64,000 bases of DNA from a virus (Duplodnaviria > Caudoviricetes). The number at the start of each line of letters is the position of its first letter. Position 1 is the first letter of the stretch. Shown here one piece after another: positions 21,566 to 35,131 of the stretch. The stretch covers positions 1,187 through 65,186 of IMG/VR virus record IMGVR_UViG_3300032312_001225, one strand, 5' to 3'. The position numbers were made by a program, and so were the translations under genes. The notes under the pieces are model-generated. The model ran no database searches, had not been told where the DNA came from, and saw only the letters and a list, made by a program, of their open reading frames with translations.

Positions 21566-22756
21566 TTGATGCAGTACACCATTGAACAAAATCCCAAATT
21601 AGGCTTTTACCAAGTTGGAGATACTAGATATTACAGCAAGGTAGAAGCCCTAATAGCAGGCACAAAAGCCAACACCTTTCCTGAGTGGCATTTTAATCGT
21701 ACAGTATTTGATGCTCATAATTGGCTAGCAGAACCCGAAACTGATCTACAACAGTTGTATCGACAACGAGCACAACAAATTAGAGATGAATACGATTACA
21801 TTCGTTTAGAGCTTAGTGGCGGTGCCGATGGCAACACAGTATTGTATGCATTTTTACTCAACAACATTCACCTGGACGAAGTGGTATTTCGTTATCCCAA
21901 GACAGGTGAAAAGAATGTATCAGCAGACCCTTTCAATACCAAACCAGAAAATACTCTAAGCGAGTGGCAGTATGCAGCCAAGCCCACACTAGATTGGATT
22001 GCTACCAATTACCCTCAAGTTAAAATCACTGTACACGACTATAGTGAAGACATGCTAGCCAGTGAGCATGATGAGTCATGGGTGTTTAAGACCAGAGATT
22101 ATTTTCAACCTGGGCATCCTTTCAAACATACAGTTGATGCAGTACATGAACACAAAATACTGTTAGACTCCGGTCAACGTGTGTGTATGCTGTGGGGTGT
22201 TGACAAGCCCAAAGTGTGTATTAAGGATAGTAAGTGGTACCTGTACTTCATGGACATCCAGGCCAATGCTGCCAACCCTGACATCAAGCACTATACCAAT
22301 ATTGCCAATGTGTATTTCTTTTGGGCACCAGACTTGCCCGATCTAGTTTGTAAACAGGCACACACAATAAAAAACTGGTTCAATCAAGAATCAAATAAAT
22401 ATCTACAGCACTTGGTACGTTGGCCCAACTACAGTTTTGCACAGCGTACCACATTCGAACACATTGTTAAACCCCTAATTTATCCCGACTACGATCCCAC
22501 AACGTTTCAAACCAGCAAGCCCACAAACAGTTTTTACAACGAAATGGACTATTGGTTTTACACAAACTTTCAGGATACTCATGCGTATCGAGCATGGCAA
22601 GCCGGACATAAATTATTAACTGATTCGATAGATGCCAAGTATTTCAATTACGAAATGGGTCGAGCAGTGGGCTTTGTGGGATTTATCAGTCCATTTTATT
22701 ACTTGGGCGATGCAGCATATCAAGAATCTGGACGTAACGTACATTACAAATTTTAA
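21566..22756 (+). CDS. PP-loop (adenine nucleotide alpha-hydrolase-like) protein of unknown function
   Basis: LELSGGADG PP-loop variant; full-length paralogue of 28954-30249. Confidence 0.6.
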   Translation: MMQYTIEQNPKLGFYQVGDTRYYSKVEALIAGTKANTFPEWHFNRTVFDAHNWLAEPETDLQQLYRQRAQQIRDEYDYIRLELSGGADGNTVLYAFLLNNIHLDEVVFRYPKTGEKNVSADPFNTKPENTLSEWQYAAKPTLDWIATNYPQVKITVHDYSEDMLASEHDESWVFKTRDYFQPGHPFKHTVDAVHEHKILLDSGQRVCMLWGVDKPKVCIKDSKWYLYFMDIQANAANPDIKHYTNIANVYFFWAPDLPDLVCKQAHTIKNWFNQESNKYLQHLVRWPNYSFAQRTTFEHIVKPLIYPDYDPTTFQTSKPTNSFYNEMDYWFYTNFQDTHAYRAWQAGHKLLTDSIDAKYFNYEMGRAVGFVGFISPFYYLGDAAYQESGRNVHYKF

Positions 22757-22764
22757 GGAAAAAA

Positions 22765-23679
22765 ATGAAAAAACTATTAGCAGTTGTATTAGCAACACTT
22801 TCTCTGTCAGTGTCGGCACAAAAAGAAACAATCACCATGTACTACTCATGGACCGCCGCAGACACAGCCGCAAACTTTTATCGCACCTTAGCAGATGAAA
22901 GTAACAAACTTCAAAACAAATACAATTTTATCTTTGATGCCAAACCTGGTGCAGGTGGCACAGTTGCGGCTGCAGCAACATTAAACAATCCCAACTCAAT
23001 CTGGATCAATAGTTCGGCGGCGTTTATCCGCCCTAACCTGTTCCCAAACGAAAGTCACGACATGAGTCAGTTTAGAAGTCTAATGCCCATGTGTGTTGCT
23101 CCGTTTGTGGTTACAAGCACAAAGTATAAATCTTGGAAAGATGTTCCTCAAGATGCCAAGTTAAGCATTGGTATCAGTGGATTGGGTGCAACCACTCACT
23201 TGGTAGCATTGCAAGTGGCCACGCAGTATCCAAACATGCAGATTGTGCCGTTCAAGAGTACCAGCGAAGCATTGTTGTCTACGCTATCCGGTAACACCGA
23301 TTTTGCTGTGGGTTTTATTGGTGATAGTGAACAGTACACCAAACCCGATGCCTCCAAGCGTGTGTACCAATTGGGCATGACTGGCAAACAAAGCATCAAA
23401 GGCATTCCGTTGTTAAAAGATCAGGGTTTTCCAGCAGTGATATCAGACATGAGCACACCGCAACAGATCTTTATCCCACGCAAATTCCCAGAAGAAAAGT
23501 TCCTGGAAATTCGCAAGATTTTTGTAGAAGCTGCACGTAGCAAAAGTGTACGTGATGCCAATGCCGCAGATAACTGTGTGCCCAACAATCAGATTCCCAC
23601 AGCTGAGCTAGACAACTGGTACAACAGTCAGCTGGTGCTATGGCGCCGTTTGAGTGCCACAGTTAAACTGGACAAATAA
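22765..23679 (+). CDS. Bug/TctC-type tripartite tricarboxylate transporter substrate-binding protein
   Basis: Signal peptide MKKLLAVVLATLSLSVSA; KPGAGG; SGLGATTHL; VPFKS...LSGNTD. Confidence 0.8.
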   Translation: MKKLLAVVLATLSLSVSAQKETITMYYSWTAADTAANFYRTLADESNKLQNKYNFIFDAKPGAGGTVAAAATLNNPNSIWINSSAAFIRPNLFPNESHDMSQFRSLMPMCVAPFVVTSTKYKSWKDVPQDAKLSIGISGLGATTHLVALQVATQYPNMQIVPFKSTSEALLSTLSGNTDFAVGFIGDSEQYTKPDASKRVYQLGMTGKQSIKGIPLLKDQGFPAVISDMSTPQQIFIPRKFPEEKFLEIRKIFVEAARSKSVRDANAADNCVPNNQIPTAELDNWYNSQLVLWRRLSATVKLDK

Positions 23680-23803
23680 AAAAAAAAGCTAAATAATTAA
23701 AGCAACGCCGACATTCAGTTGACGTCAGACGCCTAGGGTAACTACCCTTTTACCGGTGTGTTACACTGGAACGCCGCCAAAAAAAATTATAAAGGAAATA
23801 CAC

Positions 23804-24289
23804 ATGAAAACTACTAAAATCCGTTGGGTAATCGCACACGAGCCACTGAGCCTATTTGTACGTGCAGCAGAAGACTTCCAACGCTTTGTAAACGAAGCTC
23901 AAAGTGCAGAAAAGATCGAAGTTGAAGTTATGACACTGAGCGAGTACAGCATGAAGTACAATGACGGCGTCATGGTTACCAAACACGATCTACTAGACCT
24001 AATGGAACAGGGCAAGATTGAAATGAGCCAAATGTACACCACATGGTTGGCTGAAGATATCGAGCACGATATGTTGGCCCTAGAAATGCCATTTATTTTT
24101 GAAGATCACGACCATGCAACTCGTGTGTTAGAGGGTGAAGTTGGCGAGTATCTACTAGACAAGATTACAGAAAAATCCAATGTTCGCGGTATGGCATTTA
24201 CATACTCAGGCGGTTTCCGTAATGTTATTGCTAACAAAAAGGTAAGTACTCTAAAAGATCTAGCTGGTAAAGATGAAGATCAGAACTAA
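23804..24289 (+). CDS. DctP-like TRAP solute-binding protein, N-terminal half (no signal peptide)
   Basis: LALEMPFIFEDHDHA, YSGGFRNV...TLKDLAG, then out of frame with the C-half; AAGGA RBS before 23804. Confidence 0.75.
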   Translation: MKTTKIRWVIAHEPLSLFVRAAEDFQRFVNEAQSAEKIEVEVMTLSEYSMKYNDGVMVTKHDLLDLMEQGKIEMSQMYTTWLAEDIEHDMLALEMPFIFEDHDHATRVLEGEVGEYLLDKITEKSNVRGMAFTYSGGFRNVIANKKVSTLKDLAGKDEDQN

Positions 24290-24761
24290 TCGTAATCCTG
24301 TGGCCCAGGACACGTTTCGGGCAATAGGGATTGAAGATCCCTTTGTTTGCGAAATAGAAGATCTTGGAAAACATATAGAAGCAGGTGACTGTGAAGGCGG
24401 AGAAGGTATATACAGTCGTATCTATCCTTTGGGTCAAGACCGAGTCACCAAATCAGTTTTAAATACTGAGCATAGCTTGTTCCTGACCACCATGATCATG
24501 CGTGACGACTTCTGGCAAACATTAAGTCCAGAAGTTCGTGCAGTGATCAAAGAAGCAGCAATCCGAGCTGGTCGCAAGGAACGATTGACAACAATCGAAG
24601 ATGGACTTGACGCTAGAGCCAAACTGATTGCCGACGGAATTGAAGTTCATGAACTAAGTGACGAAGAACGTGCTGAGTTTAAATCAAAAACCCGGGTAGT
24701 ATATGACAAGCATGAGCCAACATTTACACCCGGTCTAATTGATCGAATCAAAAAGGCATAG
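24273..24761 (+). CDS. DctP-like protein, C-terminal half, copy 1
   Basis: MKIRTNRNPVAQ...HSLFLTTMIMRDDFWQTLSPEVRAVIKEAA; starts exactly at the DctP 'KIR' hinge motif. Confidence 0.75.
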   Translation: MKIRTNRNPVAQDTFRAIGIEDPFVCEIEDLGKHIEAGDCEGGEGIYSRIYPLGQDRVTKSVLNTEHSLFLTTMIMRDDFWQTLSPEVRAVIKEAAIRAGRKERLTTIEDGLDARAKLIADGIEVHELSDEERAEFKSKTRVVYDKHEPTFTPGLIDRIKKA

Positions 24762-24762
24762 A

Positions 24763-25248
24763 ATGAAGATCAGAACCAATCGTAATCCTGTGGCACAAGA
24801 AACAATGCGAGTGTTGGGTGCTGATATATTTGTTTGCGAAACAGAAGACACTCGTGCCCATATCATTGATGGCGACTGTGATGGCGGAGAAACTGTTTAC
24901 AGTCGTATCTATCCATTAGGACAAAATGACGTAAGCAAAACAGTATTAGACACCAAACACAGTTTATTTTTAACCACCATGATCATGCGTGATGACTTCT
25001 GGAAGACATTGAGTCCAGAAGTTCAAGCTGTGATCAAGGATTCTGCTATCAAGGCAGGACGTAGAGAACGTGAAGTAACTATACAAGATGGTGAGGATGC
25101 CAAACAGCAATTGGTTGCTGATGGTATTGATGTTATTGAACTTTCCAAAGAAGAAACAGCCGAGTGGAAGGAAAAAGCTCAAGCAGTTTATGAAAAGTTT
25201 GAACCAACATTCTCACCTGGCTTGATTGATAAAATTAAAAAGGCTTAA
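24763..25248 (+). CDS. DctP-like protein, C-terminal half, copy 2
   Basis: MKIRTNRNPVAQ...HSLFLTTMIMRDDFWKTLSPEVQAVIKDSA; diverged tandem copy of 24273-24761. Confidence 0.75.
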   Translation: MKIRTNRNPVAQETMRVLGADIFVCETEDTRAHIIDGDCDGGETVYSRIYPLGQNDVSKTVLDTKHSLFLTTMIMRDDFWKTLSPEVQAVIKDSAIKAGRREREVTIQDGEDAKQQLVADGIDVIELSKEETAEWKEKAQAVYEKFEPTFSPGLIDKIKKA

Positions 25249-34144: not shown

Positions 34145-35131
34145 ATGAATCAAAAGAAAAAAATCACCTGGTTAATAGCACACGAACCTGTAAATTTGTT
34201 TTTACGTACTGCCGAAGCATTCAAAGAAAAAATTGCTGAATTGACTGATGGCAAATTTGAAGTGGAAATCTATACACCATCTGAAATTGAATCTAAAGTT
34301 ACTAACAAGGATCTAAAAGATTCAAGTTTGTCGTATAAAACAGATCCAATGGTCCTATTAGATTCAGAAGATATTCAGATGAGCCAGTTGCATATTACCG
34401 AACTAGCACGTTGGCACAGCCCAGAATTTTTAGCACTTGAAATGCCATTTATTTTTCAAAGTCACGAACATGCAACTCGTGTATTAGAAGGCCCAATTGG
34501 CCGTAAAATGTTAGATGACCTAAAAGACAAAAGTCCGGCACGAGGAATGGAATTTACCTACTCAGGTGGCTTCCGTTGTATGGCTAGTGAAAACCCAATT
34601 AATAATCTAGCAGGACTTGCAGGACTTGAATTTGCTACTACTTACAATCCTGTAACTATGGATACTTGCGAAGCAATTGGCGCCGTACCAAAAATATTTG
34701 CAATAAAAGATATGTATGTTAATAGAGAATTTTTTAAGCAAGAAGGTAATAATGCTGATGTATTAGAAACAACTATTCCTCGTTACCTTGCCCAATTTAA
34801 AGATTCAAGCAAGAAATATTTAATCAACACCAAACATAATTTATTTCTAACAAGTATTATTATTGGCAATACCTTTTGGGACACACTAAGTGCAGACGAA
34901 CAATCTAAATTTAGCGAGGCATGTGCCTATGCAAGTAGATTAGAACGTAAGTGGTCTGTTGAAGAAGCTGAAGAATTTGCTGCTAAAAAAGATCACAGTG
35001 ACATAGGTGTAGTTTATACAGAACTAAGTGAGGAAGATACTGCTAAGTTCAAACAGGCAACAGCTTCACTGTACGACAAATATCGAGACTTCTTCTACCC
35101 AGGACTCATTGACGGAATTATTAAATCCTAA
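34145..35131 (+). CDS. DctP-like TRAP solute-binding protein, intact, no signal peptide
   Basis: ITWLIAHEP, LALEMPFIFQSHEHA, YSGGFR, HNLFLTSIII..FWDTLS; aligns with 23804-24289 plus the C-halves. Confidence 0.8.
   Translation: MNQKKKITWLIAHEPVNLFLRTAEAFKEKIAELTDGKFEVEIYTPSEIESKVTNKDLKDSSLSYKTDPMVLLDSEDIQMSQLHITELARWHSPEFLALEMPFIFQSHEHATRVLEGPIGRKMLDDLKDKSPARGMEFTYSGGFRCMASENPINNLAGLAGLEFATTYNPVTMDTCEAIGAVPKIFAIKDMYVNREFFKQEGNNADVLETTIPRYLAQFKDSSKKYLINTKHNLFLTSIIIGNTFWDTLSADEQSKFSEACAYASRLERKWSVEEAEEFAAKKDHSDIGVVYTELSEEDTAKFKQATASLYDKYRDFFYPGLIDGIIKS

Follow-up and report, generated by a model that had tools for sequence, protein, structure and literature searches.

Organisation of the DctP locus

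The stretch of DNA analysed here (the window, 64,000 nucleotides) makes up most of a 65-kb IMG/VR viral record and carries ten tRNA genes. Its source is an uncultured freshwater jumbo phage, and the related jumbo-phage contigs reach lengths of up to 357 kb. CheckV puts the completeness of the 65-kb record at 5%, and comparison with the closest syntenic relative (357 kb) would imply a value of about 18%. Within the window, three consecutive open reading frames on the plus strand divide between them the profile of a DctP-type solute-binding protein (PF03480), and an intact copy of such a protein is encoded elsewhere in the window:

23804–24289, plus strand: N, the N-half gene, 161 aa, with its ATG at 23804 and a C-terminal tail that reads ...LAGKDEDQN before the stop
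24273–24761, plus strand: C1, the first C-half gene, 162 aa, with its ATG 17 nt inside the tail of N, in the +1 frame
24763–25248, plus strand: C2, the second C-half gene, 161 aa, with its ATG 1 nt past the C1 stop
34145–35131, plus strand: an intact, signal-less DctP-like paralogue, 328 aa, matching PF03480 over profile positions 13–283 (127.6 bits)

In a Pfam search, N matches PF03480 over profile positions 11–136 (58.4 bits), C1 over positions 138–281 (76.3 bits) and C2 over positions 138–284 (87.7 bits), all of them above the Pfam gathering cut-off for this family (23.4 bits). None of the three polypeptides holds the complete two-domain DctP fold; the profile is divided at 136/138 between separate open reading frames. 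N contains the strands of domain I, the first hinge strand and the arginine of a GGFR motif, and the odd residues of its tail (DEDQN and the like) arise because the conserved start of the C-half is read there in another frame. At the protein level C1 and C2 share 70% identity and 85% similarity (their DNA is also 70% identical), and both terminate in PGLID(R/K)IKKA. The coordinates of the three genes, the +1 frame, the 1-nt gap, the shared C-termini and the intact paralogue had all been noticed in an earlier, model-made reading of the sequence alone (the sequence-only reading), and each was found as it had been described.

A scan for sigma-70 promoters and terminators found no promoter-like or terminator-like sites at the N/C1 and C1/C2 junctions. 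The same scan placed a terminator-like hairpin within C1 (24326–24342, plus strand, 7 bp ahead of a T-rich tail) and a promoter-like site across the end of C2 (25226–25253, 9 of 12 matches), and the counts of such sites in the region do not exceed those in shuffled sequence. A blastn search of 50,697 GenBank phage records returned no counterpart of the locus.

Conservation of the split and design of the junctions

Searches of viral and metagenome contigs with N, C1 and C2 yielded about 60 loci, the junctions of which were read. The split is present in about 45 related phage loci, with no internal stops. Neither of the outcomes that the sequence-only reading had named as refuting (reads in support of a single fused gene with one C-half, or a split unique to this assembly) is borne out. 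At least four junction designs occur among the split loci, and a fifth state is seen in fused genes:

Type A (the type of the window): a +1 overlap, with an ATG or GTG within a short N tail
Type B: an ATGA stop/start overlap
Type S: TAA TAA ATG, in frame
Type D: a spacer of 19–85 nt
Fifth state: truly fused genes, 316–320 aa

Types A and B lie one base apart, and in every split form the C-half has its own start codon directly ahead of MK[ILV]R, the motif that contains the conserved arginine. Stand-alone C-halves of 161–162 aa fall into at least 294 clusters at 90% identity (from separate gene calls in JGI, ENA, Logan and NCBI assemblies), and the fused form is likewise abundant. In a tree of the concatenated halves (a quick search with SH-aLRT support only, rooted on cellular homologues with signal peptides), all of the split forms make up one clade (SH-aLRT 85) that is sister to the fused phage forms, which argues for a single old fission. 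The simplest history would be one fission followed by small indels that reshaped the junction.

A search of 1.84 billion proteins also returned representatives of about 178 aa that resembled independent splits. One of these (P0248) turned out to be a fused gene of 321 aa that had been called from an internal start by mistake, and another short representative (P0309) is without a viral locus; since P0248, the one traceable case, is really fused, independent splits elsewhere are not claimed. One contig (L035:3995–7123) contains three tandem DctP-like loci, namely two split pairs, the first with an overlap and the second with a 19-nt spacer, and a fused paralogue of 350 aa.

Recurrence of the doubled C-half and selection on its copies

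The order N-C1-C2 with a 1-nt gap recurs in three further assemblies (L060, L061 and L077), which come from different projects and show overall identities to the window of 84–97%. The N, C1 and C2 proteins of the window are 97%, 95% and 86% identical, respectively, to those of L060 and 94%, 91% and 89% identical to those of L061, while L077 is a partial contig containing the end of C1 together with C2. The bases running from the C1 stop to the C2 start vary among the assemblies (TAG-A-ATG, TAA-C-ATG, TAA-T-ATG), which indicates diverged strains and not copies of a single artefact, and the exact words shared at the C1/C2 junction span only 14 and 17 nt.

All three genes are under strong purifying selection. 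Across the comparisons of N-C1-C2 contigs, for which dS is 0.84–2.8 (above 1 in all but one), dN/dS is 0.034–0.048 for N, 0.025–0.049 for C1 and 0.024–0.061 for C2; between C1 and C2 it is 0.117. The full ranges obtained for N and C2 are 0.03–0.09 and 0.024–0.085, respectively. Mean column identity across 29 N-halves is 85%.

The syntenic 357-kb relative (L017, CheckV 100% complete) has the same neighbouring genes, and in it N is followed by one C2-type half through a type B junction, so C1 is dispensable in some lineages. The C2 of the window is 91% identical to this single C-half and is nested within that clade in the tree, where C1 forms a separate lineage together with its counterparts from L060 and L061. 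Two further contigs (L029 and L046) carry a tandem pair of C-halves of their own, of independent origin, with dN/dS of 0.055 and 0.072 per copy. Taken with the pair of the window type, these imply that doubling of the C-part arose at least twice.

Position of the cut and composition of the ligand pocket

The position of the cut was examined on an AlphaFold model of a fused relative (L078:1575–2528; pLDDT 91.7), which resembles solved TRAP binding proteins, with a TM score of 0.87 to IseP (8t9t). The cut maps to the loop 155–157, between a short helix (151–154) and the arginine-bearing strand (158–161), and follows the long first hinge strand (128–144) by about 12 residues. The gene had been described from the sequence as split at its hinge into lobes; the split itself is borne out, but the model places it beyond the hinge strand instead of exactly at the hinge, and the predicted lobes are interleaved. 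In this model the first strand of domain II comes from N, and the C part also carries the second hinge strand (224–232) and the C-terminal helices, which run back to domain I. With strands and helices crossing between the halves, the chains would be intertwined and would not form two clean lobes, and this argues for obligate co-folding.

The GGFR arginine, which from family motifs we take to occupy the position of SiaP R127, is invariant in the N-halves. The arginine at residue 4 of the C-half, presumably at the position of SiaP R147 and TeaA R144 by the same motifs, does not vary among 34 C-halves and corresponds in the alignment to the KIR/KVR arginine of 4p47, 8t9t and 2vpn. No residue of DctP-type binding proteins is more highly conserved than this KIR/KVR arginine, which 98% of them carry (PMC4646407). 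The intact paralogue, which falls in a separate fused clade of the tree, has an alanine at the family arginine position (LEFA aligned against the MKIR of C1); as this alanine replaces the carboxylate-binding arginine, the ligand of the paralogue may not be a carboxylate.

The C1 and C2 lineages are separated by 19 fixed differences, 14 of them within residues 1–66, which form the core of domain II. One of the differences is a glycine in C1 against a threonine in C2, at the position that aligns with the ligand-contacting asparagine of the DGxEN motif in solved relatives. The fixed differences would fit different ligand preferences for the two C-halves.

Neighbouring genes, export signals and an upstream RNA leader

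Two genes and two further features lie directly upstream of N:

21566–22756, plus strand: a 396-aa protein with a PP-loop-like SGGxD motif, a conserved neighbour
22765–23679, plus strand: a TctC/Bug-like binding protein, with a sub-threshold score of 22.2 bits against PF03401 (cut-off 27)
23690–23696, plus strand: a putative TAAATAA box that resembles a T4-type late promoter and is conserved in upstream alignments of the relatives
23722–23785, plus strand: a structured RNA leader, supported by covariation

The SGGxD motif is invariant in relatives of the 396-aa protein at 18–74% identity. The Pfam matches of this protein are weak (argininosuccinate synthase N-terminal domain, E 0.0012; Asn_synthase, E 0.32), the Atlas leads are QueC and Asn_synthase, and its AlphaFold model (pLDDT 44.9) is too poor for a fold search; we regard the putative PP-loop assignment as weak. 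In many phage loci the genes for the 396-aa and TctC-like proteins accompany the DctP-like gene, and the TctC-like gene adjoins it in L017, L022, L024 and L083.

The TctC-like protein has a clear Sec signal peptide and is encoded directly upstream of the signal-less DctP genes. No signal peptide was found on N or on any phage DctP-like protein examined: N starts 7 residues ahead of the WVIAHEP strand, with an in-frame stop upstream. The cellular homologues P0257 and P0261, by contrast, do carry signal peptides. As to transporter partners, DctM and DctQ (PF06808 and PF04290) gave no match in the record of the window or in its relatives of 316–357 kb, one of which is CheckV 100% complete, and no TctA is present in the window or in a complete relative (G001); membrane subunits of the host might still serve as DctQ/DctM partners. 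A different arrangement is seen in fused-lineage phages, where the genes around the DctP-like gene encode a TctA homologue, an MFS transporter and a secreted protein of 276 aa. In one such jumbo phage (G002; L039:1552–6352) the DctP-like gene is flanked by TctA (PF01970, 101.9 bits) and an MFS/Sugar_tr transporter, and TctA is also found in G003 (476 bits).

The RNA leader consists, from 5' to 3', of a GACGCC box, a 5-bp hairpin, the sequence UUUAC, a 6-bp hairpin and a GAACGCC box, and 22 distinct variants of it were collected upstream of split or fused orthologues. Compensatory changes are present at 8 of its 11 base pairs and 99.6% of cells are paired, a level reached by none of 500 shuffles. 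The fold of the single sequence is no better than that of shuffled sequences (z −0.33), and the structure is accepted on the covariation and not on the single-sequence fold. A covariance model of the leader matches once in the window (76.8 bits) and once in each large relative genome, ahead of the DctP-like gene; L039 has copies at L039:2897–2960 and L039:3885–3948, one of them an additional copy that precedes the gene for the secreted 276-aa protein beside TctA. Rfam contains no family for the leader, the best match being DUF2815 RNA at 16.2 bits (E 1.6) against a gathering threshold of 41.2. We consider it a candidate riboswitch or protein-binding site. The neighbouring genes, the leader and the absent signal peptide point to a possible role in intracellular organic-acid handling, under dedicated RNA-level control.

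A proposed two-chain binding protein with alternative C chains

The locus is, we think, probably the result of an ancient fission, and would encode a signal-less, two-chain carboxylate binder of the DctP family, with C1 and C2 as competitors for a single N chain. N, C1 and C2 would be made as separate chains by coupled translation (through the 17-nt overlap and the 1-nt gap), and N would co-fold with a C chain to give the two-domain structure usual for the family. This would make the ligand pocket composite, with the GGFR arginine supplied by N and the key carboxylate-binding arginine by residue 4 of each C chain. Since the window encodes a single N chain and a pair of diverged C chains, the expected products are the heterodimers N+C1 and N+C2, which would have domain I in common, would differ at pocket positions of domain II, and so would probably differ in ligand or affinity. 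Since it lacks a signal peptide, the protein may act inside the infected cell, or at least not be Sec-exported, and would do so without the TRAP membrane subunits. The split DctP would thus belong to a conserved phage organic-acid module.

A combinatorial two-chain protein with swappable specificity lobes was among the mechanisms offered by the sequence-only reading, and the conserved layout and the purifying selection favour it. We infer the association of N with the C chains, their alternative pairing and, from alignment positions, a difference in specificity, together with the class of ligand and the cellular role. Two points weigh against this two-chain reading: N is the sole common partner, so that if the three chains were made in equal amounts, one C chain in two would have no N to pair with, and the complete relative L017 manages with N and a C2-type half alone. 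A fuller version, to which we give rather less than even weight, is that N alternates between C1 and C2, so that 1.4 kb of DNA would provide two cytoplasmic receptors for organic acids, each with a different pocket, and that the uncatalogued RNA leader, acting as a riboswitch or as a site to which the protein itself binds, sets their expression.

It is unlikely, though the alternative deserves weighing, that the halves do not reassemble and instead have separate functions, or that the C chains pair among themselves, as C1 with C2 or each with its own kind, into a pseudo-two-lobed protein. The presence of two C chains per N chain would fit this, as would the retention of each half as its own gene since the fission. 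However, N and C genes invariably lie side by side in a constant order and are usually coupled by an overlap, the two pocket arginines are on different chains, and neither half is a self-contained domain in the AlphaFold model, where C completes domain I and N gives the first strand of domain II.

Far less credible is a regulated switch in which recombination at the conserved 5' stretches deletes, swaps or inverts the C-halves, an idea prompted by the near-identical 32-mers at 24273 and 24763. These do match at 31 of 32 positions in the window, relatives exist with one C-half (L017) or two, and C2 sits in a clade of single-C phages. Yet any two C-half genes, whatever their lineage, have 25–31 of these 32 bases in common, and C1 and C2 share only 27–28 of them in L060 and L061, which have the same layout as the window. 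The stretch is conserved because it encodes the nearly invariant peptide MK[IL]RTNRNPVA, and the repeat thereby loses its special status; judged on these sequences, the 32-mer is no evidence for a recombination device. Nor is there a recombinase or an inverted repeat at the locus, the layout of which has been stable over dS above 1.

A programmed +1 ribosomal frameshift that fuses N to C1, also raised from the sequence, would be a considerable surprise. It would exploit the +1 frame of C1, as skipping one base after AAA gives an in-register LAGK-MKIR fusion. The junction types, however, differ and have no conserved slippery site: the pre-shift codon varies among type A relatives (AAA, ACT, GCT, GTT, ACG), type B would need the opposite shift, type S has two in-frame stops and type D has a spacer with stops. 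In all types the C-half has its own ATG or GTG start, and no conserved stall codon or stimulatory element was found. Genes with +1 frameshifts of the prfB type have a conserved site and a stimulator and have no independent downstream start, and the split DctP differs from them on each count.

We give just as little credence to a decaying pseudogene, broken by a frameshift mutation and followed by a duplicated fragment. Starting from the fused forms, a 1-nt indel would indeed yield the junction of the window, but dN/dS is 0.02–0.12 on all three open reading frames at saturating dS, there are no internal stops in the roughly 45 loci, and hundreds of stand-alone C-halves are intact. Least probable of all is an assembly artefact joining two strain alleles of the C-half, which the sequence-only reading had listed as a real alternative: C1-type and C2-type halves do occur singly at the same position in different phages, and one contig (L016) breaks inside C1, but the C1-stop/C2-start junction with its 1-nt gap recurs in three other, diverged assemblies, with differing bases and with proteins 84–95% identical to those of the window.

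If the two-chain reading with alternative C chains is correct, the locus encodes a natural combinatorial two-chain solute-binding protein. Solute-binding proteins are the textbook single-chain, two-lobe fold and a common biosensor scaffold. A natural two-chain version would demonstrate that this fold can withstand being cut at a defined loop and, with one chain present in two alternative forms, that the pocket halves may be exchangeable, an idea that protein engineers pursue. It would also add to a growing picture in which large aquatic phages encode 'transporter' binding proteins that lack both an export signal and a transporter. The location of the DctP-like gene beside enzymes of acid-activating type, and behind a structured RNA of its own, points to intracellular organic-acid handling during infection.

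Comparison with known systems

The DctP-family binding proteins of TRAP transporters (PF03480; SiaP, TeaA 2vpn, IseP 8t9t, 4p47 and 4xfe) belong to the same sequence family as the split DctP, and have in common with it the two-domain fold, as modelled in the fused relative (TM 0.87), the carboxylate-binding arginine and the second pocket arginine. Unlike these proteins, the split DctP is encoded by two to three genes, has no signal peptide and has two alternative C parts; DctQ and DctM are absent from the window and from the CheckV-complete phage relative, and the asparagine of the DGxEN motif is replaced by glycine in C1 and threonine in C2. The fused, signal-less phage DctP-like proteins (phrog_31178 and P0142, the NCBI 'uncultured Caudovirales phage' DctP) occur in related jumbo phages, are 316–320 aa long and are 74–78% identical to N. 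These fused forms share their clade, RNA leader and neighbouring genes with the split form, but are single chains, whereas the split form is divided and has its C part doubled.

The DctP family and annotated fused, signal-less phage copies (P0142, phrog_31178) were therefore already known. What is new is the occurrence of one N with two diverged C-halves that are under selection and conserved across assemblies, the range of junctions, and a phylogeny that suggests a single fission. A search of the literature on phage DctP, split solute-binding proteins and gene fission in binding proteins found nothing relevant, and we know of no solute-binding protein that is split in this way, nor of one in which one part exists as two diverged alternatives.

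Other phage genes have been divided in a similar manner. The large subunit of T4 topoisomerase II is split into gp39 and gp60, and jumbo phages have split RNA polymerase subunits. In these cases likewise, the ancestor was one gene that was cut into adjacent, co-expressed genes, the products of which are thought to reform the fold; they are enzymes with one copy of each part, whereas the split DctP has two C parts. Engineered split maltose- and ribose-binding proteins undergo fragment complementation, in which this class of fold reassembles from two chains. The splits in those periplasmic binding proteins are artificial, whereas that of the phage DctP is natural, old and selected.
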